A DNA stretch of 30,233 nt from Candidatus Woesearchaeota archaeon (lineage in GTDB: Archaea > Nanobdellota > Nanobdellia > Woesearchaeales > GW2011-AR4), in the NCBI GenBank assembly GCA_016784195.1, contig JADHVE010000006.1, positions 1-30,233 on the forward strand, in the 5' to 3' direction. The position numbers and the translations under genes are program-made. How positions within the stretch are numbered: position 1 is the stretch's first letter; the number at the start of each line of letters is the position of its first letter. The notes under the pieces are model-generated. The model saw nothing but the letters and a program-made list of their open reading frames with translations. It made no database searches and was not told the origin of the DNA. Positions 2,090 through 21,893 of the stretch are shown one piece after another.

Positions 2090-3583
2090 ATGAAAAAAGG
2101 TACATTGATCATAATCTTTTTCTTAATTCTGCCTGTTATAGCTGCTGAAATAAGCATAAAGCAGAATAATGGCAATTACAACTTAGGTGATAAGATTTCT
2201 GTTTCCGCATCTGTAATTGAAGATGAAGATGTAACTGGCTTTTTTAAAGTCAGTTTAGAATGCACTAACTACGCCATGCAGTATTTTGTAACTCCAATAA
2301 GCCTGGAAAAGAATTTCAGGACAAATATTAATGTTCCCGATTTAACAGCAACAAAAGATATGCTGGGCAGCTGCAGTATAGAAGCTGATTTAGAAGGAAA
2401 TGACGGAACTGTTGATGTAGAACATACCCTCGGCTTCAGGGTTAAAAAAGAGCTGAATGTCAGCTGTGAATCTTCTGAAGCAATTCCAGGTAAAGATATA
2501 AAGATTTCCTGCATTGCAAAAAAGATCTCTCTTGATCCAGTCCAGGCAGGAACAGCCAATCTGAATTATGATGGTAATGAATTTACAACAAATGTAGAAG
2601 ACGGGATTTTTGATTTTGATGTTTTTATTAAAAACGATGCTCCTGCAGGTGCAAAAGAAATCACTATCCAGGTTGATGACAATCAAGGTAATTATGGTAA
2701 TTTAATCTTTAATGCCTATGTGGAGGCAATTCCTACAAAATTAGAAATCGAAGTTAATAAAGAATCATTTAAGCCAGGAGAAACATTAGAGATAAAGCCT
2801 GTGCTGTATGATCATGTCCATGGTTTAATTGATGCAGAGGTAAACCTTGAATTTACAGATATTGATGATAAACAGCTCATTTCAAAGGATATCCAAAGCG
2901 GTGAAACTGCAAGTTATGTTTTTAACAGCTTTGCTATCCCAGGAGATTATAAAGTCAAAGCTAAGTCTGAAGGATTAACAGCAGAAAGAACAATAAAAAT
3001 AGAGAGCTTAATCAAAATGAAGATGACTTATGCTAATGAAAAGGTATTGATAAAAAACATAGGCAATACCTTCTATGATGATAAAACCACAATCATTCTT
3101 GAAGATGAGGGAGGCAAAAAATATCTGATTGAGAAAAATATAAATCTTGCTCCGGGACAGGAAAAAGAGATTGATTTGTCCAAAGAAGTGCCTTATGGCA
3201 ATTATGATGTTGTTCTTCCTGAAGAGTCTATTAGCGCTGAAACAGCCAGTGATAATCAAGCAACTAATGTTATAGAAAACGTCGAGATACGTGACAACAG
3301 GCCAGTCTACAAAAAAGCAGGAGAAGGAGTTAAAGGGGGCATGGGCATGATATCTGGCGCAGCTATAGGCGCTGTGGGATTTGCATCTGCAAAGCCTCTA
3401 TTTGCAAGCGTAATCCTTGTTGTAATAATTTTGGTTATAGTCTTATTTTACAGCCGGGACTTCATCAAAAGTAGGGTTGGCCAAGTAAAGGTAAAAGTTG
3501 ACAAGAAAGAAGGCATTCACCTGGAAAAGAAAGACGGTGATACTGAAGGATTGTTTAAGGACTTTAAATATGGCAAAGGATAA
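2090..3583 (+). CDS. Secreted, C-terminally membrane-anchored surface protein (S-layer/adhesin-like)
   Basis: N-terminal signal peptide MKKGTLIIIFFLILPVIAAE; long beta-rich ectodomain; C-terminal Gly/Ala-rich hydrophobic helix ISGAAIGAVGFASAKPLFASVILVVIILVIVLFY followed by a short basic tail. AT-rich TATA-like sequence upstream at about 2050-2075. Confidence 0.75.
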   Translation: MKKGTLIIIFFLILPVIAAEISIKQNNGNYNLGDKISVSASVIEDEDVTGFFKVSLECTNYAMQYFVTPISLEKNFRTNINVPDLTATKDMLGSCSIEADLEGNDGTVDVEHTLGFRVKKELNVSCESSEAIPGKDIKISCIAKKISLDPVQAGTANLNYDGNEFTTNVEDGIFDFDVFIKNDAPAGAKEITIQVDDNQGNYGNLIFNAYVEAIPTKLEIEVNKESFKPGETLEIKPVLYDHVHGLIDAEVNLEFTDIDDKQLISKDIQSGETASYVFNSFAIPGDYKVKAKSEGLTAERTIKIESLIKMKMTYANEKVLIKNIGNTFYDDKTTIILEDEGGKKYLIEKNINLAPGQEKEIDLSKEVPYGNYDVVLPEESISAETASDNQATNVIENVEIRDNRPVYKKAGEGVKGGMGMISGAAIGAVGFASAKPLFASVILVVIILVIVLFYSRDFIKSRVGQVKVKVDKKEGIHLEKKDGDTEGLFKDFKYGKG

Positions 3584-3974
3584 TATAAAAATAATAAGCA
3601 TAGAGTTTAAGAAAATAAAGATAAATAAATTTTTGCCTAAAGAAAAAACAGTTGAGTTCTCTATATTCTTCAATGACAGTGATGATAAGGAAATCTCAAG
3701 GAGTATTAACTTGGGTAATATTGAAGGCATTGCAGAGAACATAGTAGATGATATAGTCAATATGGAGAAGAACATCAACAAAGAGTTTGATGGTGAGGCT
3801 TTGATTGATAATCCCTCAAATGTCTTTGTTAAAAACAAAGAAGAATTATTGCCTAAAATAACTAATTTTCTTAAGAAGGTCTCTGAAAATATTGAACAGG
3901 TTAAAGCCTGCAAGACTTCAAACGGCTATCTGGATTTAGTCGGCAAGGTTAACAGGATGAGCCTGGAGTTTTGA
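3570..3974 (+). CDS. Hypothetical protein (134 aa), translationally coupled to the upstream surface-protein gene
   Basis: ATG at 3570 overlaps the end of the 2090..3583 CDS by 14 nt. The ORF-track entry 3498..3974 is the same frame with an earlier, less likely start inside the upstream gene. Confidence 0.5.
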   Translation: MAKDNIKIISIEFKKIKINKFLPKEKTVEFSIFFNDSDDKEISRSINLGNIEGIAENIVDDIVNMEKNINKEFDGEALIDNPSNVFVKNKEELLPKITNFLKKVSENIEQVKACKTSNGYLDLVGKVNRMSLEF

Positions 3975-4044
3975 ATTCTTTTTTCAACTTATTTTTTAAC
4001 ACCAGGTATAATTTGATTCATTAATAAAAACATTTAAATATATA

Positions 4045-4072
4045 AACATATTTAAATATATAAATATGTTTT
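4045..4072. promoter_or_regulatory. Inverted repeat (11-bp arms, 6-bp spacer) overlapping the ArsR-family gene start codon; candidate autoregulatory operator
   Basis: aaacatattta-aatata-taaatatgttt. The right arm contains the ATG at 4066. Flanked by a direct repeat of tttaaatatataaa (4033-4046 and 4051-4064). Confidence 0.5.
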
Positions 4073-4332
4073 TAGTGGATAAATTTAAAGCTTTAGCCGA
4101 CGAAACAAGAATTAAGATAGTTAAATCGCTTTTCTCTGGAAAAAAAACAGTTTCTGAGATTGTTCCATCAACAGAAAAGTCCCAACCAAATGTTTCTATT
4201 GCCCTCAAGCAATTACTTCATGCAGGCATTATTGCCAGGGAAAAGAAAGGCAAATTCGTACATTACAGCCTAAAAGATCCTGAAAAGATCAAACAGATTA
4301 TCCGGTTAGTTGGTGGTGATGATGGCATTTGA
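4066..4332 (+). CDS. ArsR/SmtB-family winged-helix transcriptional regulator (no metal-binding Cys motif)
   Basis: 88 aa. LADETRIKIVKSL...KTVSEIVPSTEKSQPNVSIALKQLLHAGIIAREKKGKFVHYSL matches the ArsR HTH consensus (ETR.kIl..L, SQ..vS.HLk.L..AG.v.....G..v.Y.L). Confidence 0.8.
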   Translation: MFLVDKFKALADETRIKIVKSLFSGKKTVSEIVPSTEKSQPNVSIALKQLLHAGIIAREKKGKFVHYSLKDPEKIKQIIRLVGGDDGI

Positions 4333-5725
4333 AATTTTAGGCTTAGAACTGGATATTATAGGCATCACAGTATTCATAGCTGTTTCAGGAGCAGTTATCT
4401 ACTTTGCAAGGCAGTTAAAGCATAAAAAACCCGATGCAGATTCAAAAGAGCGAAAAAGCGCAGTAAAAAAGATTTCAGCAGCAGAAAAAGCAGCAATAAA
4501 ACAGCAGAAAAAGCAGATAAAGATTGAAAAGGAATTAGTGAAAGAAGAGGTTAAGATTTTAGAAGTTGAGAGTGAATTAGGAAAAGCAACTAAAGACATG
4601 ATCAATATCGGAGAAGTAAGCAAAAAAGAGGAAGAGGAATTAGACAATAGGATTAAAAGTATAATCAACACGATAAGGGTGCAGCTGTCAAAACTAAAGT
4701 ACCAACAAAGCTTCAATGTTGTTGAAAAGAAATATCTGATAGGGCTGGTTAGATTACTCCTAAACCAATTGATGCACAGGATTAAAAAACAAAAAGAAGA
4801 TGAAGGAGCCACTAGAAACATATCTAAAATTATAGATTTTGTTATCAGAAGTGTAGAACATATTTCTAAGGAGATGTATTCTCAAGAAGTTAAGGTTTTT
4901 GATGTTGAGAGCGATTTAGAAACCTTAAAATTTTATGAAACTGAAAAATTACAAGAACTATCTCCGGAAAATTCAGCAATATTGAAAAAAATAAACAGCA
5001 GATTAGAATATATGAAATTCAAGATAAAAAGCAATATAGCCGCATTAAAATTTATTACGACTACCTTGAAGGATAAAGAAAGGATAGTTTCTGAAGATTT
5101 TAACAACCTGAAAGAATTTGATAAAAAATTCCATGCTGCTTTGGATCGAGCTTTTAACAATATAGAAAAATTTTCAATATCTTTGAGAGAGAAGCCAATG
5201 ACAACAGAAGAAACTATAAATGGAGCTGCCCTAGCAATTAGATATGCTTATAATGAAATGATACAACTCACAGATTCTTCAATCAAAAAAAATGTTTTGT
5301 TAATGGAGTTTATTCCACATACAGTTCCACTCCAAAAACAGATATTATTTATCCTTGATAAAGGACTGGAAATCGAGAAAACTCATATTTATTTAGTTAA
5401 GTTATTTGAGGCTTTAAATGAAACAGTAAGGAGGATAAGCCTAACTGGTAAAAATGAGATAATTAACCTATTCATGGATATACAAAGAGAAAAAATAAAA
5501 GAATTCAAAATTAAAGAGATACAAGAAGAAAAAGATAAGATTACATTGAAAATTAAAGAGAAGATTCAAACCAGTATAGTGAATATAGAGCGGATATCTA
5601 ACTTAAATCGTGCATATCTGCCAAAATTAAATGAAAAAAAAGCTGGATTAATATATGAGGGGAAGAGGATTATTAACTTCTTATCTAAAATTAATAAAGA
5701 ATTTAGGGCAAGAGAAAAAAGATAG
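4310..5725 (+). CDS. Membrane-anchored, lysine/glutamate-rich coiled-coil protein of unknown function
   Basis: Start overlaps the ArsR stop (coupled). N-terminal TM helix LDIIGITVFIAVSGAVIYFA, then about 440 aa of heptad-like K/E-rich sequence. Confidence 0.65.
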   Translation: MVVMMAFEILGLELDIIGITVFIAVSGAVIYFARQLKHKKPDADSKERKSAVKKISAAEKAAIKQQKKQIKIEKELVKEEVKILEVESELGKATKDMINIGEVSKKEEEELDNRIKSIINTIRVQLSKLKYQQSFNVVEKKYLIGLVRLLLNQLMHRIKKQKEDEGATRNISKIIDFVIRSVEHISKEMYSQEVKVFDVESDLETLKFYETEKLQELSPENSAILKKINSRLEYMKFKIKSNIAALKFITTTLKDKERIVSEDFNNLKEFDKKFHAALDRAFNNIEKFSISLREKPMTTEETINGAALAIRYAYNEMIQLTDSSIKKNVLLMEFIPHTVPLQKQILFILDKGLEIEKTHIYLVKLFEALNETVRRISLTGKNEIINLFMDIQREKIKEFKIKEIQEEKDKITLKIKEKIQTSIVNIERISNLNRAYLPKLNEKKAGLIYEGKRIINFLSKINKEFRAREKR

Positions 5726-5888
5726 AAAAAATATGTTCCAAACTTAACCATACTGATAAATTCTGCGTTAATTTTAATTGTTTTTTGGAATGTATCGTAA
5801 AAAATATTTGTTTAGTAATATTTTACTTTTATTAAGTAGTAACCAGAAAGATTTATATATTAGGTAATCTTTCTAAAAACTACCTAAC

Positions 5889-7496
5889 ATGGTAGATAAT
5901 CAAACAATAGACACAGTTTTGGACGAGATGGAGGAAGAAATTAAGGAGTATGAGAAGACTCCTTCTACTTCTGGATTTAATCCTAGCTCTAACCCGGCAA
6001 CCAGAATAGACACTCCCTGGCTGAAAGACCGGGAGGAAAAGATAAACGCAAATTTTCCACAGATGGTATTCTATGACTGGGAGGGGCAAATAATTAAAAA
6101 AAAAAGTGGAGATCCTAAAAGCGATAAGAAACCATATCATTTTCCTTATCTTTTCAAGATAGAAAGAGGCACTGCAGTTTTAACTGAAAGACTTGGTGAT
6201 CTTTCAAGTTACGGATTATTAAGACACAGAACCAGATGGATGGATCTGGTAAAACTAAAGACTGAACTAAAGAATGGAAAGAAGATTTATTTCTTTGAGG
6301 GTGGCCATATTGGTAAGGTAAGAATAGATAGTGAATATTGGAATAAGAAAGAAGAATATTTGCTGCGAGATGTAATTCGTACAATCGAGAATCTTGGATA
6401 CCAATTTACCCCCCAACCTAAACCCCAAAAAGGTAGTTTACCTCTAGAATCCTACTCAAATGCCCAGTTCTCCCCACGGGATGACCCATCAGATAGTACT
6501 TCAAAACCACTTACAGCTGACAGGAGCACAGTTAAGATTGATAATCTTGACTATAAAATCAGTAAAAAAAGACTAAAGGATAACAATAACTCAGAAAATT
6601 CCACCGAAGAAAATCCCCCAGAAAATGAAAGGCTGGTTATCAACGAAATTGTTGATTTGATTGGATATAGTTTAAATTCAACATACAAAGTAAGAAGGGC
6701 TGGCCTACATATAGGATGGGGAAAATGGATTGACAAAAAAATAATGGTTAACACTCAAGCAGTAGGTTATGATGTAGTATTCACTGATATGTACACAAGA
6801 GATGGAGTAAAAGTAAACGCAGATACTAGATTTACACTCCAGGTAAGGAACAATCCTGAAGACCTTTACAGGTTTGCTGTTAAAACAAAGGAAGTTGAAA
6901 AACAGCTGCAACAAACAATTTTTGGTTTTGTAAAAGAATATACTTCAAGCTTAACCTCTGACCAGATAGTTGACTCAAAGAAAGAATATATGTCTGAACA
7001 ATCAAGTACTAAAAAGATAGCAAAAGAAAATATGGCAGCACGAGATATTTTGAGCATTATCAGGAAAGATTTTGCAGCATACATGGTGCAGTGGGGTTTC
7101 GAGCTCACAAGTGCAATAGTCCAAGATTATGAACTCCCTTATGACATAGAAAACGCATTTAAAGAAACTGAGGCAAACAGGAGATTAGTCAAATCAGGGT
7201 TGTATGAAGGGGAGAGGCAGAGTTCAAAAATTGAGGAGATTGCAAGAGGTGAATCATCCAGAGTTGTGATGCTAGGTGAAGCAGGAGCTAAAGCACTTAA
7301 AAAAAAGGCAGAAGCCTATCAGCAACCAGGTGGACAAGAAGTCTATAAATTAGATACTGCAAAAGAAGTAGCTAGCAAGGTAAATAATATGAATGTTGTT
7401 TCTTCAGGTTCATTTGTAGATGACTTAGTAAACGGTGTAGTAGAAGGTGCAAAAAAAGTGCAGGATCAAAAAATAGTAAATAGGATAATTCGCTAG
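5889..7496 (+). CDS. SPFH/band-7 (stomatin/prohibitin-like) domain protein with a long unique N-terminal extension
   Basis: The C-terminal ~220 aa (VFTDMYTRDGVKVNADTRFTLQV..., ...AARDILSIIRKDFAAYMVQWGFELTSAIVQDYELPYDI, then ...EANRRLVKSGLYEGERQS..EIARGES) fit the SPFH-domain pattern. The N-terminal ~250 aa have no recognisable TM segment. Confidence 0.7.
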   Translation: MVDNQTIDTVLDEMEEEIKEYEKTPSTSGFNPSSNPATRIDTPWLKDREEKINANFPQMVFYDWEGQIIKKKSGDPKSDKKPYHFPYLFKIERGTAVLTERLGDLSSYGLLRHRTRWMDLVKLKTELKNGKKIYFFEGGHIGKVRIDSEYWNKKEEYLLRDVIRTIENLGYQFTPQPKPQKGSLPLESYSNAQFSPRDDPSDSTSKPLTADRSTVKIDNLDYKISKKRLKDNNNSENSTEENPPENERLVINEIVDLIGYSLNSTYKVRRAGLHIGWGKWIDKKIMVNTQAVGYDVVFTDMYTRDGVKVNADTRFTLQVRNNPEDLYRFAVKTKEVEKQLQQTIFGFVKEYTSSLTSDQIVDSKKEYMSEQSSTKKIAKENMAARDILSIIRKDFAAYMVQWGFELTSAIVQDYELPYDIENAFKETEANRRLVKSGLYEGERQSSKIEEIARGESSRVVMLGEAGAKALKKKAEAYQQPGGQEVYKLDTAKEVASKVNNMNVVSSGSFVDDLVNGVVEGAKKVQDQKIVNRIIR

Positions 7497-7580
7497 TTCT
7501 TAAACAATAAAATAAATAAGAAAAAATTTTCTCAATCAACTGCTGGATTATATAAGATAAAAAAAATAAAAAAGTTTTAT

Positions 7581-8168
7581 TTACTTCCTCAACAGATCCC
7601 TTCTTCGTTTCCAGTTAGCAGTTCTGCTTGGCCTTAATTTTTCAGCGCCTTTTCCTTTCTTTCTCAACCCTCTGCTTTTCCTTCCTGCAGATGTCAATCC
7701 GCGCTCTGCTCTTCCTTTCTTCTCCGAAATCCAGGCAATGTTTTTATCTGCTAGTATTTGAGGATGTTTTCTATCTACTAAAATAACCTCATACCAGTAA
7801 TGCAATCCATCTTTTCCAACATAGTAAGAGTTAAGTGCTTCACAATTAACATATCTCTTTGATGCTCTTTCTTCTGCAACCCACTGGTAATTTTTGTCTA
7901 CTATCTTCCTTCTTCCAAAATGCTTGCTTCTTCTACCTGCTCGTATTTGTGGCCTTTGTCTTCCGCCTCTTGAGACACGCTGCCTTACTACAACAAAACC
8001 TGGCTTTGCCTTATAGCCAAGAGAACGAGCTTTATCAAGCCTTGTCGGCCTTTCTATCCTCAGAGTTACTGGTTCTTTTCTCCACTGAATAAGCCTTTGA
8101 GACCAAATTTCACCTAAATTTTCCTTTGGTTTCTTCCATAGATTCTTTATATACTTGTACATACCCAT
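7581..8168 (-). CDS. rpl15e: 50S ribosomal protein L15e
   Basis: [73 protein letters not shown] is a clear L15e signature. Confidence 0.95.
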
Positions 8169-8457
8169 CTTGTTAGCCTCCGTTATTATAAATGCAAAAG
8201 CATTTTTTATTCAGGCAAGCAACTGCCCACATCTATAGTACAGGGTTTTTGGGATATTTATAAAGTTAACTGTAAAATTTATATATACTTGAGTGATTCT
8301 TTAGTAAAAAAGAGGTAAAAGGCACTCTAAGGATTCTTAGAGAAACAATTTAAATAAAAAAATTACGTATTTTGTGTTAACTATTTAAATTTGTTATCAG
8401 CCTATCTTGATAAACATGAAGATTGTTTATTAGAAAAAGTTCCAAATAAACTAAGAA

Positions 8458-8730
8458 ATGATGCAAATGGCAATTATTGAAGAAAATTTAAAATTAGTAA
8501 ACGATATAGGATTTATAATTCAAGACATAAACCAATCAGGTTACTTTGAAAAGAAACTCTTTAATCATATATTTAGAACCCAGAAGGAGACTTATTGTCC
8601 CAAAGATAGAGTAGTTTTTGAAAACATACACCAAGCATACAGCTGTGCTTATGAACACTTAATCAAATATCGCAATTCAGGATTCATTGATAAAATAAAA
8701 CAATATAGAGCAAATAGGTGGAATAAATAA
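8458..8730 (+). CDS. Hypothetical small protein (90 aa)
   Basis: ORF only. Its stop overlaps the next ORF's start (TAATG). Confidence 0.35.
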   Translation: MMQMAIIEENLKLVNDIGFIIQDINQSGYFEKKLFNHIFRTQKETYCPKDRVVFENIHQAYSCAYEHLIKYRNSGFIDKIKQYRANRWNK

Positions 8731-8966
8731 TGGTCCGGACTGTTTTAAAACCAACAATACTGACTCCTAGTTCTATTGATACTTTTATGGCAATAGCAGA
8801 TTATGTTGCTAATGAAAATGGTTGTAGGATTAAATATGAAAATAACAAAATGCAAATTAAAGGGGACAGAGAAACTGCAATGTTTTCATTAAAAGTCACT
8901 TATGAGAATATCTTAGGTTATAATTTAATTGAGAATAGAAGAAATAATAAACCGGGAACTAAATAA
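8730..8966 (+). CDS. Hypothetical small protein (78 aa), translationally coupled to the upstream small ORF
   Basis: ORF only; TAATG stop/start overlap at 8728-8732. Confidence 0.35.
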   Translation: MVRTVLKPTILTPSSIDTFMAIADYVANENGCRIKYENNKMQIKGDRETAMFSLKVTYENILGYNLIENRRNNKPGTK

Positions 8967-9230
8967 TAATTATTTTATTTGCTATATTATTATTCTTTAA
9001 ATATATAAATGTACTGATTACTTCAGATTTAGTTGAACCCTCAATGTTGTTTTCTGAATTTATTATCTTATCTTTTTTTAACGCACTTAGGCTTTATGAA
9101 TATAATTAAGTTATTTGGAACTCACTGTCCCGCATAACTCTTTTCTACTCGGATTAATCATAGTTTATTACATAACAAAAGGTGACAGAAACAAAACATA
9201 GACAAAACTAAATGGAGAAGAAAAAATATT

Positions 9231-9439: not shown

Positions 9440-9910
9440 ATGAAATGTCCTTTTTGCAGCAATCCTGATACAAAAGTTCTTGATAAAAGGGAAACTGAAG
9501 AGCTGGAAGTAACCAGGAGGAGAAGAGAATGCTTAAAATGCAGAAAACGCTTTACGACTTACGAGAGGATTGAAACTGTTGAGCTGTTTGTTGTAAAAAA
9601 AGATGACAGAAGAGAGCAATTTAACTTAGATAAATTAAAAACAGGTATTATTAAAGCATGCGAAAAAAGGCCAATAAGCATGGAACAGATTGAGCAGGCA
9701 CTTAATAGTATAATGGCAGAGCTTAAAGAAAAAAACAAGAAAGAGATACAAAGCAGGGAAATTGGCGAGTTGCTGATGAGAAAATTAAAGAAGCTTGACC
9801 AGGTTGCTTATATAAGGTTTGCTTCTGTTTACCAGGATTTTCAGGATCTGTCTTCTTTTAAAAAAGAGGTAAGCAGATTAGAGAAAAAAAGGAAAATTAA
9901 TAAAAAATAA
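9440..9910 (+). CDS. nrdR: Transcriptional repressor NrdR (zinc ribbon plus ATP-cone)
   Basis: MKCPFCSNPDTKVLDKRETEELEVTRRRRECLKCRKRFTTYERIE followed by an ATP-cone-like region (VVKKDDRREQFNLDKLKTGIIKACEKRPIS). Confidence 0.85.
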   Translation: MKCPFCSNPDTKVLDKRETEELEVTRRRRECLKCRKRFTTYERIETVELFVVKKDDRREQFNLDKLKTGIIKACEKRPISMEQIEQALNSIMAELKEKNKKEIQSREIGELLMRKLKKLDQVAYIRFASVYQDFQDLSSFKKEVSRLEKKRKINKK

Positions 9911-9942: not shown

Positions 9943-10034
9943 CATTAAAAATTAAAAAAAGCCAATTGTGTTCAATTTTTTATTTTTATAATTTTAATAA
10001 TAAACTAAAAAATAATCAAAGAACAAAACCAAAA
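9943..10034 (+). repeat. Copy A of a repeated upstream (promoter/leader) module; contains a TATA-like tract tttttatttttataattttaataa
   Basis: 9943-9965 and 9967-10034 are 100% identical to the reverse complement of 14074-14096 and 13935-14002. Lies between nrdR and the nitroreductase gene. Confidence 0.85.
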
Positions 10035-10041
10035 CAAAACA

Positions 10042-10057
10042 CAAATAATTGTGAATG
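10042..10057. promoter_or_regulatory. Dyad-symmetric motif CACAA-ATAA-TTGTG downstream of copy A; candidate transcription-factor site
   Basis: caaataattgtgaatg. Related sequences: cacaaataattgagt at 14011-14025 (inside the copy-B insertion) and cacataattgagtg at 20881-20894 (copy C). Confidence 0.4.
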
Positions 10058-10130
10058 TATAAAATTACTCAATGGTTTAAAATTAATGATAAAAACAATT
10101 AATGAAAAAACTGATTAAAAGGTGGTTTGG

Positions 10131-10676
10131 ATGAATGAAATCATAAAAACAATAAAAGAAAGAAGATCTATAAGGGCTTATGAAAGCAAGCCAGTTGAGA
10201 AAGAAAAGATTGATCAGATTTTAGAGTGCGGCATGTGGGGGCCTTCTGCAAAGAATGATCAAAAATGGCATTTTACTGTTATAACAAATAAAGAGATTCT
10301 GGGAAAAGTTACAGCAATGAGGGTTCAGGCAGAAACTGATAAGAACTCAATGATGGTACAAAGGGCAAAAACTATGGAAGATCCAGTTTTATATAACGCT
10401 CCACTATATGTTGTGATTACTGCTCCTGAGGATTACAATTATGCAGACATTGACGGATCAATAGCGGCGCATAACATGATATTAACTGCGCATTCTCTTG
10501 GCTTGGGAAGCTGCTATATTGGCACTGTAAAAATTTTGAAGGACAATAAAGAGTTTAAGAGATTATTGCAGGTTCCTGAAGGTCATAAAATTGTGATTAC
10601 AATTGTTTTTGGTTATGCAAAAGAAGAGCCAGAGCCCAAAGAAAGAAATCGAGATGTTGTGAGTTGGATTGAGTGA
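10131..10676 (+). CDS. Nitroreductase-family (NAD(P)H-flavin oxidoreductase-like) protein
   Basis: ERRSIRAY...KWHFTVI...SIAAHNMILTAHSLGLGSCYIG is typical of the nitroreductase fold. ATG at 10131 is preferred over the GTG at 10122 (GGTGG Shine-Dalgarno 6 nt upstream). Confidence 0.8.
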   Translation: MNEIIKTIKERRSIRAYESKPVEKEKIDQILECGMWGPSAKNDQKWHFTVITNKEILGKVTAMRVQAETDKNSMMVQRAKTMEDPVLYNAPLYVVITAPEDYNYADIDGSIAAHNMILTAHSLGLGSCYIGTVKILKDNKEFKRLLQVPEGHKIVITIVFGYAKEEPEPKERNRDVVSWIE

Positions 10677-10681
10677 TTGTT

Positions 10682-11719
10682 TTAAGGTTCCAAAACAACT
10701 TTCAAAGACTCTTTTGCATCTGAAACAATCTTAAAGCCTTCCTGAATTTTATCTAATGGCAGTTTATGAGTTATCAGGTTTTTAACATTTATTTTTTTGC
10801 TTTTTATCAAATCTAATGATTCCTGTAAATCTTTTGGCGCTGCCCCGTAGCTTGAGGTTACTGTTAATTCATTTCTCCAGAAATCTACAGTTGGGATTTC
10901 AATATTTTTGTTGGGTATGGCAAAAAACAATATTGTTCCTTTCTTGTCTATGCAGTTGAATGCCTGCTCAACTGCCTTTAAAGCTCCAGTGCAGATTATT
11001 ATCCTGTCTGCTTTTATATTTAAGCTGTCTTTTGATACACGAAAAAATTCCTTTGAAATTTTTTGCGTCTCAGAACTTGCTTTGTAATTTCTGCGGACAT
11101 CAATAACTTCATCTGCTCCAAACTCTTTTGCTTTTTTTAACCTGTATTCATCTATATCTGTTACAATAACTTTCGCTCCTTTTAGCTTTGCTAATTGTAT
11201 GTTTAACAATCCAGAGATTCCAGAGCCCAGGATTAAAACAATATGCTCTTTTTTTACATTAATAATCCTTTGGCCCCTGACGACGCAGGCTAAAGGCTCA
11301 ATCATTGTCCCTTCATCATAAGTTAGATTATCAAGTGAATAAGTTCCATTTTCTACATTTATTTTTGGGACTCTTACAAATTCAGAAAATCCTCCGGGGT
11401 CATAATTGCCTTGATGCAGGGTTTCACATGCTGTGGAGTTATCTTCTAAGCAGTATTTGCATTTATTGCATGGAACGTGATGGGAAACAAAAACTTTATC
11501 GTTAACTTTGAATTTGTCAGATTTAGATTCAATTACATCTCCTGCAATCTCATGACCCAGAACTCTTGGAGCTTTTTTGATTCTGTACCATTCCATAACA
11601 TCTGTTCCGCAGATGCCGGAAGCTTTTACTTTAATGAGAATTTCTCCTTCAGAAATTGTCGGTTTTGGAATTTCTTCTATTCTTATGTCATTGTTATTGT
11701 GATAGACTGCTGTTTTCAT
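10682..11719 (-). CDS. Zinc-dependent alcohol dehydrogenase family (threonine/sorbitol dehydrogenase-like medium-chain dehydrogenase)
   Basis: GICGTDV, GHEIAGDV, CxxCxxC structural-zinc motif (CNKCKYC), Rossmann motif LILGSGISG. Confidence 0.85.
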   Translation of the reverse strand: MKTAVYHNNNDIRIEEIPKPTISEGEILIKVKASGICGTDVMEWYRIKKAPRVLGHEIAGDVIESKSDKFKVNDKVFVSHHVPCNKCKYCLEDNSTACETLHQGNYDPGGFSEFVRVPKINVENGTYSLDNLTYDEGTMIEPLACVVRGQRIINVKKEHIVLILGSGISGLLNIQLAKLKGAKVIVTDIDEYRLKKAKEFGADEVIDVRRNYKASSETQKISKEFFRVSKDSLNIKADRIIICTGALKAVEQAFNCIDKKGTILFFAIPNKNIEIPTVDFWRNELTVTSSYGAAPKDLQESLDLIKSKKINVKNLITHKLPLDKIQEGFKIVSDAKESLKVVLEP

Positions 11720-11730
11720 AAGAACAAAAA

Positions 11731-12513
11731 TTATTTCTTTTCTTTTTCATAAATCTTATAGGCCTCATCAACCGGAATGTTGTCATGAACCACCGCTCTA
11801 ACAGCCTTTATCATCCCAATGGGCTTACTGCTTTGGAAAATGTTCCTACCCATATCAACTCCTGCTGCTCCTTTGTCAATTACGTTCTTTGCCATTGTTA
11901 AAGCGTCTTTCTCTCCTATCTTCTTTCCCCCTGCCATCACAACAGGTGTATTGCCGCAGGCTTCAACTACTTCTTCAAAGTTTTCGCAGTTATAAGTTTT
12001 GATTATATGGGCTCCTGTCTCTACACAGATTCTTGAAGCCAGCCCTAAATAGCGGGAATCTCTTGCCATATCTTTTCCAACTGCAGTTACTGCCAAAACT
12101 GGAATTCCATAATGTTCTCCCTCATCAACCAACTTTGCCAGATTAGTTATTGATTGTTTTTCAAATTCTCCCCCAATATAAACAGAGCAGGTTACTGCAG
12201 TTGCATTAATCCTGATTGCATTACAGATTGAAGTTGTGATAATCTCATTTGATAGTTCTTTTAGAATACTTTGTCCGCCTGAAACCCTTAAAACGATAGG
12301 GATGTCCATGTCTTCGCTTATCCAGTTCCTTATTGCGCCTCTTGTAATCATCAAAGCGTCTGCATAAGGCAATAAGGGATTGACTGTTTTTCCTAAGTTT
12401 CTTAAGCCGGTTGTTGGACCCTGAAAATAACCATGATCAACTGCTAACATTACGCATCTTTTTGTTTTTGGATTTATTATTCTTGCTAACCTGTTTTTCA
12501 TACCCCAATTCAT
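11731..12513 (-). CDS. DhnA-type class I aldolase (FbaB / DKFP-synthase / ADH-synthase family)
   Basis: MLAVDHGYFQGP near the N-terminus; Schiff-base lysine context IIKTY; overall length and pattern typical of the archaeal class I aldolase family. Confidence 0.75.
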   Translation of the reverse strand: MNWGMKNRLARIINPKTKRCVMLAVDHGYFQGPTTGLRNLGKTVNPLLPYADALMITRGAIRNWISEDMDIPIVLRVSGGQSILKELSNEIITTSICNAIRINATAVTCSVYIGGEFEKQSITNLAKLVDEGEHYGIPVLAVTAVGKDMARDSRYLGLASRICVETGAHIIKTYNCENFEEVVEACGNTPVVMAGGKKIGEKDALTMAKNVIDKGAAGVDMGRNIFQSSKPIGMIKAVRAVVHDNIPVDEAYKIYEKEKK

Positions 12514-12585
12514 TTTGAATAACCTCCGATAAAGTTTTTATTGAAGTAAGCTATAAGCGTATATAAAGGTTTTGCCGAAAAGAAT

Positions 12586-13335
12586 TTATTTGATTTTAGG
12601 TATAGTATTAATTAACAATTGTGTGACTTTCCTGACATTCTTATCAAACACTTCCAGAATCTCTTCCCAAGTTACTGGCTTTTCATCTTCTTTCCAGCAA
12701 TCATAGTCTGTTGACATTGCAATAGCTGCGTAGGGAATTCCTGCTTCATTTGCTAAAATGCATTCAGGGGCTATTGACATATTTATAACATCTGCTCCCC
12801 AAATCCTAAACATTTTTGACTCTGCTCTTGTGCTAAACCTGGGACCTTCGATTGTAATAACAGTTCCTTTTTGGTGAGTTTTTATGCCTGATTCCTTGGC
12901 TGTTTCAATCAAAGTATTTCTTAATTGTTCATCAAAAGGTTCAGGCATTGCAGTATGCTTTGCGTTTTCAGCTCCACCAGGGAATTTATCAAAAAAAGTT
13001 ATTTTTCTGTGGCGTGTAAAATCGATAAATTGATCTAATATTATAAAATCTCCTCTGCCTATTTCTTTCCTTAAACTGCCGCAGGCTGTTGTTGCCAGTA
13101 TATATGCGCAACCAGATTTTTTCAAAGCCTGTATGTTTGCTCTGAAATTAACTCCTGATGGAGGTATTGAATGGTCAAGCCCGTGCCTTGCCAACAAAAC
13201 AATGTCTTTATCTCCTATTTTTCCAGTTTTAACCGTTACTTCTCCATAGTCTGTTTTGATTGTCTCGTCTTTAACATTAGAAATAATATCCGGATTGTCT
13301 AATCCAGAACCGCCGATAATTCCGATTTTTACCAT
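12586..13335 (-). CDS. mtnP: 5'-methylthioadenosine / purine nucleoside phosphorylase (MTAP/PNP family)
   Basis: MVKIGIIGGSGL...LLARHG...ACGSL... pattern of MTAP. The start at 13335 lies 1 nt after the apt stop; the track start at 13350 would overlap apt. Confidence 0.85.
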   Translation of the reverse strand: MVKIGIIGGSGLDNPDIISNVKDETIKTDYGEVTVKTGKIGDKDIVLLARHGLDHSIPPSGVNFRANIQALKKSGCAYILATTACGSLRKEIGRGDFIILDQFIDFTRHRKITFFDKFPGGAENAKHTAMPEPFDEQLRNTLIETAKESGIKTHQKGTVITIEGPRFSTRAESKMFRIWGADVINMSIAPECILANEAGIPYAAIAMSTDYDCWKEDEKPVTWEEILEVFDKNVRKVTQLLINTIPKIK

Positions 13336-13336
13336 G

Positions 13337-13909
13337 TTATTCTCCCTCAAATTCTATCATGGTGAATATTTTGTAATCTTTTAATTTTTCTTTGCCTTTT
13401 AGATCAGGCAGGTCGATGATAAAAGCACATTCAAGAATTTCTCCCCCTAATTGTTCAATAAGCTGAGTTGCAGCATTAACTGTTCCTCCTGTTGCAATCA
13501 GATCGTCTACAAGCAAAATTTTCTCTCCTTTTTTTATTGCATCTTTGTGGATTTCCATCTTGTCTTTGCCATATTCTTTTTCAAACTCTGCAGAAATGGT
13601 TTTATAAGGTAGTTTTCCGGGCTTTCTGATGGGAACAAAGCCAATGCCTAATTTATAAGCTAAAACTGCTCCGAAAATGAAACCTCTTGATTCAATGCCA
13701 ACGACCTTGTCAATCTTAATATCTTTGTATCTGTTGTATAGTTCGTCGCAGACATACTTAAATGCTTCTCCGTCTTGTAAAAGAGTTGTGATGTCTCTGA
13801 ACATCACTCCTTTGATAGGCCAGTGAGGCACTGTTCTTATTTTTTCTTTGATGTTCACTAAAACCACTCCAATAAATTTTTTGCCAATAGTAATTTTACA
13901 CAATAACAA
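13337..13909 (-). CDS. apt: Adenine phosphoribosyltransferase
   Basis: FRDITTLLQDGEAF...VVGIESRGFIFG...ILLVDDLIATGGT is canonical APRT. The start is a non-ATG codon (TTG at 13909, or a GTG a few codons in). Confidence 0.85.
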   Translation of the reverse strand: MLLCKITIGKKFIGVVLVNIKEKIRTVPHWPIKGVMFRDITTLLQDGEAFKYVCDELYNRYKDIKIDKVVGIESRGFIFGAVLAYKLGIGFVPIRKPGKLPYKTISAEFEKEYGKDKMEIHKDAIKKGEKILLVDDLIATGGTVNAATQLIEQLGGEILECAFIIDLPDLKGKEKLKDYKIFTMIEFEGE

Positions 13910-13934
13910 CCATTTAACAACTATTTGTAAATTT

Positions 13935-14096
13935 TTTTGGTTTTGTTCTTTGATTATTTTTTAGTTTATTATTAAAATTATAAAAATAAAAAATTGAACA
14001 CAACCATGTTCACAAATAATTGAGTTCCGGTTTTGGTTGTATTGGCTGTTTTTATTTAATGAAATTTTTATTATTGGCTTTTTTTAATTTTTAATG
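13935..14096 (-). repeat. Copy B of the repeated upstream module (inverted relative to copy A), interrupted by a 70-bp insertion (14004-14073); sits upstream of apt and overlaps the ZPR1 3' end
   Basis: 13935-14002 equals the reverse complement of 9967-10034 (68/68) and 14074-14096 equals the reverse complement of 9943-9965 (23/23), both checked by eye. The insertion carries a degenerate copy of the adjacent CACAA..TTGTG motif. Confidence 0.85.
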
Positions 14097-16181: not shown

Positions 16182-16493
16182 TTGCTTTTTCTGTGAAAAA
16201 AAATATCTATCATTAAAAAATTACCAATAAGAGCAGAAACATGATAGGATCTAGTTGTGAATTGTTTTTATGATTTTATGTATTATTTATTTTTTGAATA
16301 ACAAAAAATATTTTTATTTTAAAAGTAAAAAAAGACATAAAGAATAGAAACAAAAAAAACACAAATAAATGTTATAGTGTAAATTCACCTAGGGTAAAAA
16401 AATTAATTGAAAATATGTGAAATATTTTGAGATAATACATGCTTTGCAAAAATTACAAATATTTATAAATACTTATGTTTATATTGTAGAAAA

Positions 16494-19227: not shown

Positions 19228-19653
19228 ATGGTAGAATTCGGGAAACATGTCACGATTGACGCATCTGGTTGTAATCAAAAAAGATTAACTAACCATGCTT
19301 TGATTTATGATTTACTGAATCAACTTCCAGGCCGAATCGGTATGACTAAGATGACATTACCTTATGTCGTCAAATGGATGGATAAAGGGGCTAAAGTTCC
19401 GGGTATTTCTGGTTTTGTGATGATTGCTGAAAGCCACATAAGCGTCCATACTTTTCCTGAAAAAGATTATGTTTTTATTGATGTTTTTTCATGTATGAAT
19501 TTTAATGTGAAACAAGCTATCAAGTTATTGGTTGATTTTTTTGGAGCAAAAAAAAACACCACAAAAATCGTTGCACGAGGTATGGATTTCCCAAGAAGCC
19601 ATACAGATTATATCTATTCTCCTCAAGAAATTGAGTTAAATGCTACAAGATAA
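19228..19653 (+). CDS. speH: S-adenosylmethionine decarboxylase proenzyme (pyruvoyl-dependent, small SpeH-type)
   Basis: MIAESHISVHTFPE contains the ES self-cleavage site of SpeH-class AdoMetDC; length 141 aa. An arginine-decarboxylase paralogue of the same fold cannot be excluded. Confidence 0.8.
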   Translation: MVEFGKHVTIDASGCNQKRLTNHALIYDLLNQLPGRIGMTKMTLPYVVKWMDKGAKVPGISGFVMIAESHISVHTFPEKDYVFIDVFSCMNFNVKQAIKLLVDFFGAKKNTTKIVARGMDFPRSHTDYIYSPQEIELNATR

Positions 19654-19673: not shown

Positions 19674-20681
19674 ATGAAAACAGGGGTTTTGTATAATACC
19701 ATCAAAAGTTCTGAGACTCGAGAAGTCGAAGAAGATTTGATGGAAATGGCTAATAAGATTAAAAAGTCTTTAGAAAACAACGGCCATGAAGTTTCTTTAA
19801 TTAATGCTGATAAGAACCTTTTTAAAAATTTAAACAAAAAAAATATTGAATTTGTGTTTAATGTTTGCGAAAGGTTTAATGGCAATAGCTTATTTGAACC
19901 CCATGTTGCTGCTATGCTTGAGCTTTTCGGTGTTTCTTTTACTGGCTCTGATTATGTAGCCTTGTCTGAATGTAATAATAAAATAAAAACAAAAGAAATT
20001 TTAACAGTTAACCTAATGCCTACTCCAAAATACCATGTTTTTTGTTCTCCTGATGAAAAATTAAATCCCGGATTGAAATTTCCTTTGATTGTCAAGCCAA
20101 AACAGCAGGAGAACAGCATAGGCATTACAAAAGACGCTGTCGTTTATGATGAAAAAAGTTTGAGAGAAAGGATTAAGTATGTTAATGATGAGTTTAAAGA
20201 AGAAGCTTTGGTTGAAGAGTTTATTAAAGGCATTGATGTTGAGGTCGGGATAATCGGTAATGGTGATGATTTATTTATCCTGCCACTTGCAAAAGTCAAT
20301 TATGAAAATCTTTCAGATGCTGATGAAAATAAGATTTTTTGTTATGAATCAAAATGGGACTTAAAATCCAAGAACTACGGGGATTATGTAAAAGCTGATC
20401 TGTCTGAAGAGGTAGAAGAAAAATTAAAAAGATTGGCGGTAAAAATTTACAAAATTTTTAATATTAAAGATTATGGGAGAATTGATTTCAGGCTGACTGA
20501 AAATAATGAGCCTTATGTTATTGAAGTTACGGCTAATCCCGGGCTGAGTAAGGTTTGCTCAACTCTGGAATCAGCAGAATGGATTGGCTTGAGTTATAGA
20601 GAATTGGTCAATAAAATTTTTGAAAGCGCTTTAAACAGGTATGATATCAGCAAAGAAGAAGCAATAAAAATTTACCCATAA
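19674..20681 (+). CDS. ATP-grasp ligase of the D-alanine–D-alanine ligase-like family
   Basis: Ddl-like N-terminal domain (GHEVSLINADKN), central FPLIVKPKQQENSIGIT, ATP-grasp core EEFIKGIDVEVGIIGNG...EVTANPGLS. Confidence 0.75.
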   Translation: MKTGVLYNTIKSSETREVEEDLMEMANKIKKSLENNGHEVSLINADKNLFKNLNKKNIEFVFNVCERFNGNSLFEPHVAAMLELFGVSFTGSDYVALSECNNKIKTKEILTVNLMPTPKYHVFCSPDEKLNPGLKFPLIVKPKQQENSIGITKDAVVYDEKSLRERIKYVNDEFKEEALVEEFIKGIDVEVGIIGNGDDLFILPLAKVNYENLSDADENKIFCYESKWDLKSKNYGDYVKADLSEEVEEKLKRLAVKIYKIFNIKDYGRIDFRLTENNEPYVIEVTANPGLSKVCSTLESAEWIGLSYRELVNKIFESALNRYDISKEEAIKIYP

Positions 20682-20815
20682 ACAAAAATCCAATAAAAAA
20701 AGGCCATTAACAAAAAAATTATCATCAAAGATTAATAAAGAGTTCAAATAATAAAAAGATACTCCAAAATACCTGACAGGGCACAAACAGAAACACAATT
20801 AGTGGCTGGTGCGGC

Positions 20816-20957
20816 TGTGTTAATTTTTATTATTAAAAATTTTAAAAACCGAAAAGATTATCAAAAAACTAAAAACTACCCACATAATTGAGTGCGTGCA
20901 ATAAAACCTAATGAAAAAAAATAATAACTTAAAATTAATGGTAAAAAATAATTAATG
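20816..20957 (+). repeat. Copy C (diverged, about 70-85% locally) of the repeated upstream module, upstream of the DUF2156-like gene
   Basis: tgtgttaatttttattattaaaaatttt... parallels copy A's tgtgttcaattttttatttttataatttt...; cacataattgagtg versus cacaaataattgtg; ttaaaattaatggtaaaaaataattaatga (20929-20958) versus ttaaaattaatgataaaaacaattaatga (10078-10106). Confidence 0.6.
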
Positions 20958-21893
20958 ATTAAAGATTTAGGGGCGTGTGAATTGGAAGAAATAACAGATA
21001 CAAACAAATACAAAGGATATATTCAAACAGCAATAAGAAAATATGGGCATTGCGCAGAGCATAACTATTATCATTACCATCACTATGAAGATGATAAAGA
21101 AAAAAATATTTTCTTTAAGCTAGAAGGCAGCAAAGGGATATTATCCAGCTATGATAAAAAAAATGATTTGCGATATTTGTTTCCTTCAGGGATACTAGCT
21201 CCTGAAGAAGAGCGTTTTGATATACTGGTTAAGTTTTTGGATTATATTCTAAAAAAGAAAAAAGGAGAAAAACTATTTGTTGAAGTCAATGGGGAGTTTA
21301 GGAAAGAAATATTGAGGGGATTAAAAGATTCCAGACAATACAGGGCTTGCTCCAGCCCGTTTATCCTTTACTGGCCTTTGTATAACATGTCTAAGTTCGA
21401 TTCTAAACTAAAAGGCAAGAACTGGAAAAAATTGAGGAACATAAGGAACAGGTTTTATAAGAAGAATAAAGTCAAAGTTGTCGACAGCAAAAAAGTTCCT
21501 AAAGAACAGCTAACAAGGATATTAGATGCATGGCTGAAAAGAAGGAATGCCCATGATCGGGTGGAAAAGCATTATTTTGAAAATCTTATTGAAAACAATC
21601 TAAAAGGGGTTGAAATGGCAAGGACATTAATTGTTAATGGCAATCCATGCTCAATAACCGCTGGATGGAAAATACCCAATAGCAAAGGATACTATTCTCA
21701 TGTCGGGATTGTGGATTATTCTTGTGAAGGTCTTGGAGAAGTGGCTAATATTGAAGACTTAAAACTGTTAAAAAGAAAAAAATATGATTATGTTGATTTT
21801 GGCGGCTCAGATAAAGTTTTGCTTTATTTCAAGAAAAAGTTCAAACCTGAAAAAATCTATAAGACTTATATTTTTTCTATAGTCAAAAGATAA
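20955..21893 (+). CDS. DUF2156-like protein (homologue of the catalytic domain of aminoacyl-phosphatidylglycerol synthase MprF/LysX and VlmA: aminoacyl-tRNA-dependent aminoacyltransferase), with no membrane domain
   Basis: C-terminal ...VDFGGSDKVLLYFKKKFKPEKIYKTYIF resembles the conserved C-terminal block of DUF2156; 312 aa with no TM segment. Assigned from memory, moderate confidence. Confidence 0.5.
   Translation: MIKDLGACELEEITDTNKYKGYIQTAIRKYGHCAEHNYYHYHHYEDDKEKNIFFKLEGSKGILSSYDKKNDLRYLFPSGILAPEEERFDILVKFLDYILKKKKGEKLFVEVNGEFRKEILRGLKDSRQYRACSSPFILYWPLYNMSKFDSKLKGKNWKKLRNIRNRFYKKNKVKVVDSKKVPKEQLTRILDAWLKRRNAHDRVEKHYFENLIENNLKGVEMARTLIVNGNPCSITAGWKIPNSKGYYSHVGIVDYSCEGLGEVANIEDLKLLKRKKYDYVDFGGSDKVLLYFKKKFKPEKIYKTYIFSIVKR

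Follow-up and report, generated by a model that had tools for sequence, protein, structure and literature searches.

An LsrF-family enzyme and a zinc dehydrogenase form a conserved gene pair in a nucleoside-salvage operon of a Woesearchaeota archaeon: a possible thiolytic variant of the DHAP shunt

Cells with radical S-adenosylmethionine (SAM) enzymes or polyamine synthesis must dispose of 5'-deoxyadenosine and 5'-methylthioadenosine (MTA). To our knowledge, the only characterized short route for this disposal is the bacterial dihydroxyacetone phosphate (DHAP) shunt with its class II aldolase, and the fate of 5-deoxyribulose-1-phosphate in archaea is unsettled. In the DHAP shunt, including the related disposal of 5-deoxyribose, either nucleoside is converted by MtnP or MtnK/DrdK to a 1-phosphate sugar and by MtnA/DrdI to the ribulose-1-phosphate form, which the class II aldolase Ald2/DrdA cleaves between C3 and C4 into DHAP and a C2 compound, while adenine is recycled. 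The described DHAP-shunt and 5-deoxyribose gene clusters contain a class II aldolase gene and no dedicated alcohol dehydrogenase gene, and for M. jannaschii a transketolase-type cleavage of 5-deoxyribulose-1-phosphate to lactaldehyde and methylglyoxal has been proposed. Here, we describe a four-gene operon at positions 10682-13909 of a 30,233-nt stretch of DNA (the window) from a Candidatus Woesearchaeota archaeon (assembly GCA_016784195.1, contig JADHVE010000006.1), which matches the DHAP shunt in its entry steps and overall logic. Unlike the shunt with its metal-dependent class II aldolase, however, the operon encodes a putative cleaving enzyme of the class I (Schiff-base) fold, assigned to the LsrF family.

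LsrF of E. coli and Salmonella (EC 2.3.1.245) is the closest described relative of this enzyme. A CoA-dependent thiolase, the E. coli enzyme converts 3-hydroxy-5-phosphonooxypentane-2,4-dione (P-HPD) and CoA to DHAP and acetyl-CoA (Marques 2014, restated in PMC6410053 and reflected in the RefSeq product name); it is the single characterized member of the family, and the P-HPD thiolase reaction is known from that enzyme alone. The E. coli operon contains lsrK and lsrG and no dehydrogenase gene; in enteric bacteria, P-HPD is provided by LsrK and LsrG.

The Woesearchaeota operon consists of four minus-strand open reading frames (ORFs) in one direction, encoding an adenine phosphoribosyltransferase (APRT), a phosphorylase of the methylthioadenosine phosphorylase (MTAP) family, a class I 'aldolase' of the DeoC/LacD fold, and a Zn-dependent medium-chain dehydrogenase/reductase (MDR). 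The ORFs, with the start codons assigned by public gene callers, leave gaps of 1, 72, and 11 nt, which confirms the close packing described in the original prediction. The features are as follows:

13337-13858, minus strand: apt, adenine phosphoribosyltransferase, 173 amino acids; GTG start at 13858 by the gene callers, longest ORF to a TTG at 13909.
12586-13335, minus strand: MTAP-family (MtnP-type) MTA/5'-deoxyadenosine phosphorylase, 249 amino acids; ATG at 13335 by the gene callers, longest ORF to 13350.
12514-12585, minus strand: 72-nt spacer with a TATA-like TTTATATA and GGAGGT 8 nt ahead of the ATG, as read from the sequence.
11731-12513, minus strand: LsrF-family class I aldolase-fold enzyme, predicted P-HPD thiolase, 260 amino acids; NF006081.
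10682-11719, minus strand: Zn-dependent MDR dehydrogenase, predicted NAD-type, 345 amino acids; Pfam ADH_N and ADH_zinc_N.

The apt product (Pfam Pribosyltran) scored above the apt equivalog cutoffs (TIGR01090, 240.8 vs. 185.85; NF002634, 260.1 vs. 170). The phosphorylase (Pfam PNP_UDP_1) passed the MTAP model TIGR01694 (277.1 vs. a cutoff of 274.85) and was far under the cutoffs of the purine nucleoside phosphorylase (PNP) models, which places it with the MtnP-type enzymes of the DHAP shunt, its substrate preference being predicted.

The 'aldolase' had been regarded as a DhnA-type enzyme similar to DKFP synthase, a view contradicted by the profile searches and by its residues. It cleared one curated hidden Markov model alone, NF006081 (LsrF, P-HPD thiolase; 397.7 bits vs. 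a cutoff of 297), and the sister models stayed under their cutoffs (ADH synthase, 188.7-199 bits vs. 241 and 299; archaeal fructose-bisphosphate aldolase (FBA), 131 bits vs. 430). Compared with solved structures, it reached 302 bits with E. coli LsrF, 143 bits with the ADH synthase MJ0400, and 71 bits with T. tenax FBA, and in the multiple alignment it matched E. coli LsrF at 56% identity along the entire barrel. Nine ligand or catalytic residues named in the 2009 LsrF structure paper (Asp57, His58, Lys203, Gly226, Gly227, Asp251, Met252, Gly253, and Arg254) were all kept in the window protein, as D26, H27, K172, G195, G196, D220, M221, G222, and R223 in the same order, and at least 77 of the 81 family members share them. 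Lys172 (Lys203 in LsrF) is the Schiff-base lysine, and the last six of the nine form the phosphate site. According to the same paper, LsrF is without the Tyr or Glu proton shuttle of fructose 1,6-bisphosphate (FBP) aldolases and ADH synthase. The DhnA catalytic Tyr was likewise missing in the window protein, which reads AVTAVGKD where LsrF has AVTGVGKD and MJ0400 has MYPRGK; the Tyr of MJ0400 and T. tenax FBA (Y146; F in 1w8s) lies within an insertion absent from both LsrF and the window protein. The loop motifs DHGYFQGPTTGL and AVTAVGKD are LsrF-like.

The curated model, the degree of identity, the ligand and catalytic residues, and the absence of the Tyr are thus all shared with E. coli/Salmonella LsrF. 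Class IA FBP aldolase, the ADH synthase MJ0400, and the DKFP synthase MJ1585 have the TIM-barrel superfamily, the Schiff-base Lys, and the phosphate-binding glycines in common with the window protein, which, unlike these DhnA-type aldolases, was under all of their cutoffs (e.g., ADH synthase, 188.7 vs. 299) and had no catalytic Tyr. In a neighbour-joining tree, E. coli LsrF was nested within the diversity of the dehydrogenase-linked family. The window protein does not group with glycolytic FBP aldolases, a grouping that would have spoken against the original prediction. Clustering of the LsrF-like family at 50% identity yielded a handful of clusters, which fits one conserved function. On its sequence, the window 'aldolase' is assigned to the LsrF family and not to the DhnA, FBA, or DKFP-synthase type.

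Related loci were surveyed with one genome per GTDB species, which returned 80 loci from Woesearchaeota, Nanoarchaeota, approximately 38 Methanoperedens, Nitrososphaeraceae, Anaerolineae, Omnitrophota, Binatia, Thermoplasmatales, and others. A dehydrogenase orthologue was identified in 77 of the 80 loci across Archaea and Bacteria, nearly always directly adjoining the LsrF-like gene, whereas known shunt clusters have no such partner. The two genes were co-directional in 75 of 76 loci, typically separated by approximately 32 nt (median), and the identities to the window copies co-varied between the LsrF-like protein and the dehydrogenase (r = 0.88). The pair is the core of the operon, and the four-gene arrangement recurs, exactly or rearranged, in DPANN relatives; the recurrence of the pair (77/80) and of this arrangement is beyond chance. 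The conservation of architecture on which the original prediction had been made to depend was therefore observed. The TATA-like and Shine-Dalgarno (SD)-like motifs in the 72-nt spacer fit a semi-autonomous two-gene module, for which the spacer may be an internal promoter. No fusion of an LsrF-like gene with the dehydrogenase gene was found in a representative-library search; a few long LsrF matches were considered as such fusions and rejected, being chimeras of lsr-operon transporter genes with LsrF.

Woesearchaeota and Methanoperedens LsrF-like proteins were mutually 75-85% identical and their dehydrogenases 62-77% identical (L005-L050). Such high identity, beyond expectation for archaea so distant, suggests that sediment anaerobes have recently exchanged the two-gene module by lateral transfer.

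Membership in the LsrF family raises the question of autoinducer-2 (AI-2) processing, in which the LsrF homologue would degrade phospho-AI-2 from neighbouring bacteria as a form of quorum quenching. The database names 'AI-2 aldolase' and 'P-HPD thiolase' point this way, as does the finding that the protein is a true member of the family by its model score, and a 2024 paper took the LsrF homologues of ammonia-oxidizing archaea as quorum-sensing genes (PMC11442133). However, LsrK, LsrG, LsrACDB, and LsrR were absent in the window and none was recurrent among the 80 related loci, unlike in E. coli, and the genes linked to the pair are those for the salvage of SAM by-products. When CoA enzymes, LsrK, and LsrG were sought in 122 flanking proteins, the only recurrent ones were sugar-binding proteins, ribulose-phosphate epimerase (RPE), MtnK, and cupin, with two to four copies each. 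The locus hence differs from the Lsr pathway both in its partner, a Zn dehydrogenase, and in its context, and AI-2 processing is considered most improbable. Since the pair loci are without recurrent LsrK or LsrG and have the dehydrogenase, the latter is a candidate supplier of P-HPD.

The dehydrogenase reached the cutoff of none of its best NCBIfam matches, namely threonine 3-dehydrogenase (162 bits vs. a cutoff of 380), IolM, and Had, and its best PDB matches were sorbitol dehydrogenase, ketose reductase, and L-arabinitol 4-dehydrogenase. Because no equivalog cutoff was reached, the subfamily is left unnamed; by these matches, it is placed in the polyol/threonine dehydrogenase branch of the MDR enzymes. 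The enzyme has the GroES-like and Rossmann domains of that family together with its Cys/His/Glu ligands of the catalytic Zn. C37, H56, E57, and E141, the structural Zn ligands Cys84/87/90/98, and T187-D188 were invariant in 63 orthologues; the Thr-Asp, with which beta-2 ends, points to a putative NAD-type enzyme. The conserved R46, R116, and R148 were also considered as phosphate-binding residues and rejected as not diagnostic, with R116 aligning with an Arg also present in sorbitol dehydrogenase. Threonine dehydrogenase, IolM, and Had each yield a 1,3-dicarbonyl that is then cut by a retro-Claisen reaction. Threonine dehydrogenase, a Zn-dependent MDR enzyme, oxidizes a CH3-CHOH- group to a methyl ketone, and the resulting 1,3-dicarbonyl is cut with CoA to acetyl-CoA by 2-amino-3-ketobutyrate CoA ligase. 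The route proposed below would be analogous to this sequence, except that the cleaving enzyme here is a predicted Schiff-base TIM barrel and not a pyridoxal phosphate enzyme and that the substrate would be a sugar phosphate.

The gene neighbourhoods of the pair connect it with the salvage of SAM by-product nucleosides. MtnA was detected within 6 kb of the pair in 16 loci, including 12 of approximately 14 DPANN loci, and lies in the cluster of the relatives L085, L087, L006, L012, L013, and others; the linkage of MTAP and APRT to the pair was found in DPANN loci only (six each). The closest long relative, L085, has an aldolase 85% identical to that of the window and is otherwise syntenic. The following arrangements are representative:

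L085, operon: apt, MTAP, (CheB), LsrF-like gene, (HTH), dehydrogenase gene.
L085, after the dehydrogenase gene: a convergent operon of MtnA, nitroreductase, and class II aldolase.
L087: MetK ... MtnA, unknown, class II aldolase, (TruD), LsrF-like gene, small ORF, dehydrogenase gene, MTAP, apt.
Anaerolineae: MtnA, MtnK (497 bits), RPE-like epimerase, LsrF-like gene, dehydrogenase gene, sugar-binding protein.
Planctomycetales L070: the pair near a PNP-family gene, MtnA, class II aldolase, and acyl-CoA ligase.

The claim that the isomerase alone is absent from the window held, as MtnA was found neither in the window nor in a further 10 kb of the contig and is clustered with the operon in relatives. 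A search of the genome, which had been advised, revealed MtnA on another contig of the same metagenome-assembled genome (MAG), adjoining MetK (MBL7054740.1, 423 accession numbers from the aldolase MBL7054317.1); the two proteins co-occur in the samples ERZ24794648, ERZ24794647, and ERZ24794654, with similar coverage and a GC of 0.33. The AdoMet decarboxylase gene, at 19228-19653, lies 5.3 kb from the operon, in agreement with the approximately 5 kb given before. A role of the operon in the salvage of MTA and 5'-deoxyadenosine feeding DHAP, as originally predicted, is supported by the linkage to MtnA, MtnK, and MTAP in relatives.

No Aldolase_II gene was found in the window. In DPANN relatives, a divergent FucA/DrdA-like class II gene (approximately 40 bits to 4C25 and 6BTD) lies beside MtnA or is fused to it, and the window has lost both the class II aldolase and the MtnA gene that flank the nitroreductase gene in L085. 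In other DPANN, MtnA (IF-2B domain) was observed naturally fused to a class II aldolase domain (P0144, 577 amino acids; P0150; P0160; and L097, 8001-9734), which implies that the latter domain works directly on what MtnA produces. The L097 fusion is close to genes for an AMP/thymidine phosphorylase-like protein and an AI-2E-family transporter. An ArsR/HTH_5-type regulator gene separates the LsrF-like gene from the dehydrogenase gene in L085 (11314-11688), and another lies nearby in L087 (15175-15486), making this protein a possible local regulator of the module.

A phosphorylase, an aldolase, and a reductase together also resemble the last steps of the haloarchaeal non-carboxylating pentose bisphosphate pathway, which shares with the operon a nucleoside phosphorylase, the conversion of a ketopentose-1-phosphate to DHAP, and a redox step on the C2 fragment. 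General catabolism of nucleoside ribose would accordingly run from adenosine or inosine via ribose-1-phosphate and ribulose-1-phosphate to DHAP and glycolaldehyde, which is then reduced; in a variant, the aldolase would be a glycolytic FBP aldolase. MTAP-family enzymes can be promiscuous, and the MTAP model was cleared narrowly. However, none of the ribose-1-phosphate kinase, ribose-1,5-bisphosphate isomerase, ribulose bisphosphate phosphatase, and class II ribulose-1-phosphate aldolase of the haloarchaeal pathway is present here. Moreover, the linked isomerase scored as MtnA (TIGR00512, 380 vs. 279) and was under the cutoff for ribose-1,5-bisphosphate isomerase, the haloarchaeal aldolase belongs to class II, and the archaeal FBA models were far under cutoff (131 vs. 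430). Ribose catabolism, in either form, is thus regarded as very unlikely.

The pair could also be an independent module for another phosphorylated deoxy- or keto-sugar, for example in aromatic precursor chemistry resembling that of 6-deoxy-5-ketofructose-1-phosphate and ADH synthase, with the proximity of MTAP and apt being incidental. Most loci, including Methanoperedens and many bacteria, hold the pair alone among unrelated neighbours, the pair is preceded by TATA-like and SD-like motifs of its own in the 72-nt spacer, MJ0400 is the next closest solved relative, and in Nitrososphaeraceae the LsrF-like gene lies between an MDR gene of approximately 30% identity and ilvBN, beside a trpE-like gene. 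On the other hand, the linkage to MtnA, MtnK, or MTAP arose in at least three lineages with differing gene orders (DPANN, Anaerolineae, and Planctomycetales), the ADH synthase model was well under its cutoff, and DPANN genomes are generally without amino acid biosynthesis. A different substrate for the pair is therefore judged improbable.

In the Nitrososphaeraceae loci L065, L068, L072, L073, and L076 (approximately 2900-9000), a conserved block of trpE-like, MDR, LsrF-like, ilvB, ilvN, and leuB-like genes was observed. The LsrF-like gene of these soil ammonia oxidizers was 57-59% identical to that of the window and may have a different, biosynthetic role. The adjoining MDR, just approximately 30% identical to the window dehydrogenase, may be a different enzyme. 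The quorum-sensing readings of the Nitrososphaeraceae LsrF genes (PMC11442133) look doubtful.

How the two enzymes of the pair may act together follows from the structures of the compounds. P-HPD (CH3-CO-CHOH-CO-CH2OP) and 5-deoxyribulose-1-phosphate (CH3-CHOH-CHOH-CO-CH2OP) differ, on their structures alone, by one oxidation at C4. As this is a single C4 oxidation and the dehydrogenase is nearest to oxidizers of secondary alcohols, we infer both the substrates of the two enzymes and the order of their steps, with the dehydrogenase first and the thiolase second. In the resulting oxidative, CoA-dependent variant of the DHAP shunt, phosphorolysis by the MTAP-family enzyme would convert the nucleoside to adenine and 5-deoxy- (or 5-methylthio-) ribose-1-phosphate, APRT would return the adenine to AMP, and MtnA, encoded elsewhere in the genome beside MetK, would isomerize the sugar phosphate to its ribulose-1-phosphate form. 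The NAD-type Zn dehydrogenase, a predicted 5-deoxyribulose-1-phosphate 4-dehydrogenase, would then oxidize the C4 hydroxyl, yielding P-HPD from the 5-deoxy substrate, and the LsrF-type enzyme would form a Schiff base via Lys172 and transfer the acyl group to CoA, releasing DHAP and acetyl-CoA, or methylthioacetyl-CoA from the MTA-derived substrate. The predicted C2 product would be an acyl-CoA and not the aldehyde or alcohol of known shunt clusters. acsA, pta, and ackA are encoded in the pair-bearing Woesearchaeota MAGs YT1_182 (L007) and Yap2000.bin4.8 (L013), so acetyl-CoA could give ATP. This mechanism is our leading reading, held tentatively and with somewhat less than even confidence.

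The original prediction offers a simpler course, in which the LsrF-like protein is a plain class I aldolase acting on 5-deoxyribulose-1-phosphate, 5-methylthioribulose-1-phosphate (MTRu-1-P), or their 3-epimers to give DHAP and acetaldehyde or 2-(methylthio)acetaldehyde, which the Zn dehydrogenase reduces to ethanol or 2-(methylthio)ethanol. The salvage context would be identical, the Schiff-base Lys and phosphate site are kept, and the same bond is cut. The described R. rubrum shunt includes an alcohol dehydrogenase step, many MDR enzymes are aldehyde reductases, and the window dehydrogenase is just slightly nearer to polyol dehydrogenases than to primary alcohol dehydrogenases. In addition, the RPE-like 3-epimerase ahead of the pair in Anaerolineae could turn the ribulo (3R,4R) form into the FBP-like xylulo (3S,4R) form preferred by class I enzymes; RPE-like or class II aldolase-like epimerases were nevertheless rejected as a discriminator, since an epimerase fits either mechanism. 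Against a plain aldolase, the protein cleared the LsrF model only and is without the DhnA catalytic Tyr, and, as is implied by the LsrF structure study of 2009, aldolase activity had not been obtained. The DPANN clusters already have a FucA/DrdA-like class II aldolase, which would make a second plain aldolase redundant. That the dehydrogenase is an optional aldehyde reductase downstream of such an aldolase is further disfavoured by its closeness to threonine and polyol dehydrogenases and by its near-obligate pairing with the LsrF-like gene. The accompanying statement that a methanogen DhnA aldolase accepts 5-deoxyribulose-1-phosphate or MTRu-1-P was unconfirmed, the M. jannaschii proposal being reported as a transketolase-type cleavage. 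Overall, the aldolase-and-reductase course is considered unlikely, though a serious contender. Full-text literature searches found neither this course nor the oxidative-thiolytic one described, and nothing linking LsrF-like genes to 5-deoxyribulose, MTA, DPANN, or Methanoperedens.

Several points weigh against the oxidative-thiolytic mechanism. The substrate assignments in the clade of the pair are all deduced from sequence, and, as the same C3-C4 bond is cut by a plain class I aldolase, sequence leaves aldolase activity possible. The dehydrogenase is only modestly nearer to polyol dehydrogenases (130 bits to sorbitol dehydrogenase vs. 119 bits to the B. stearothermophilus alcohol dehydrogenase), and its Cys145 aligns with the position of a Zn ligand in classical alcohol dehydrogenases. 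The window operon has neither MtnA nor a class II aldolase-like gene, and no MtnA, MtnK, or MTAP was detected within 6 kb in the approximately 38 Methanoperedens and most bacterial loci, so the general substrate of the pair could be another one. If MTA were the main substrate, the product methylthioacetyl-CoA has no known fate, and the CoA supply in DPANN cells is uncertain. Finally, the window protein, whose first residue aligns with residue 32 of the E. coli enzyme, is without the domain-swapped N-terminal arm (approximately 30 residues) of the E. coli LsrF decamer; the median N-terminal extension was 0 in its 80 homologues, and the missing arm is probably a feature of the clade rather than one that defines the family.

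The region around the operon contains an inverted repeat and a nitroreductase gene:

13884-14003, minus strand: module upstream of the apt operon, in which 13935-14003 is an exact 69-nt copy of 9966-10034.
9966-10075, plus strand: the other copy of the module, in inverted orientation and located upstream of the gene for the nitroreductase; a sequence repeat.
10122-10676, plus strand: nitroreductase-family flavoprotein (Pfam Nitroreductase), convergent with the operon, with 5 nt between the stop codons.

The exact inverted repeat of 69 nt (9966-10034, plus; 13935-14003, minus) is continued by similarity to 10075 and 13884. It had been claimed that the repeated module drives the operon; the module is real and lies upstream of both apt and the nitroreductase gene, and its promoter role stands as a suggestion only. 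Its two copies bracket the nitroreductase gene and the four-gene operon. The module was seen only in contigs of the population of the window (L001-L004), and L085, although syntenic, does not have it; possibly it is a promoter that was duplicated when an L085-like operon of MtnA, nitroreductase, and class II aldolase was truncated. A weak third copy with the core ACAAATAnnTGT was noticed at 16352-16407.

In L085 (13277-13822), L086, and L096 (4494-5039), which are the closest relatives, the nitroreductase gene lies in one operon with the MtnA and class II aldolase genes, between the two. It is possibly an accessory gene. It was rejected as a general partner of the pair, its linkage being limited to close relatives of the window. 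Speculatively, the flavoprotein might remove methanethiol reductively from the MTA-derived alpha-methylthio ketone, so that MTA and 5'-deoxyadenosine would meet at P-HPD.

Among the other genes of the window (GC 0.33) are those for ribosomal proteins L15e and L21e, an Rpb4-like protein, aIF2-gamma, a ZPR1-like protein, and SepF. The window gave no match when scanned for tRNAs and Rfam families. A gene for an NrdR-type repressor (Zn-ribbon and ATP-cone; 9440-9910, plus strand), which is typically bacterial, stands at the place of MtnA in L085. Right after the AdoMet decarboxylase gene, at 19674-21893 (plus strand), come an ATP-grasp gene of the D-Ala-D-Ala ligase-like type and then a gene with an LPG_synthase_C (aminoacyl-lipid/FemX-like) domain, cell-envelope genes that are unusual for an archaeon and whose arrangement is kept in L085. 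Near the window end, at 29912-30070, degenerate direct repeats of 57 nt and 21-24 nt, TCTTC-rich on the plus strand, probably code, on the minus strand, for a Lys/Glu-rich stretch of low complexity.

Taken together, the LsrF-type thiolase and the dehydrogenase at the core of the operon most likely represent the DHAP shunt in a new form. More specifically, and with a little more reserve than for the mechanism itself, we propose that the pair constitutes an undescribed 'thiolytic DHAP shunt', by which 5-deoxyribulose-1-phosphate, and perhaps MTRu-1-P, would be converted via C4 oxidation to DHAP and acetyl-CoA. If this is true, the LsrF-type thiolase/dehydrogenase pair with MtnP or MtnK-MtnA would provide a testable answer to the fate of 5-deoxyribulose-1-phosphate in archaea, and the C2 fragment would be saved as acetyl-CoA, from which fermentative DPANN cells would gain ATP. 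Many anaerobic archaea (DPANN and Methanoperedens) and bacteria would then form P-HPD as a normal intermediate when they dispose of 5'-deoxyadenosine, and thousands of archaeal 'AI-2 aldolase/LsrF' annotations, along with the quorum-sensing readings resting on them, would be wrong. For the LsrF family, so far known only from the degradation of a quorum signal, this would establish a role in primary metabolism, and the last enzyme of enteric AI-2 degradation would have been borrowed from an older salvage route.

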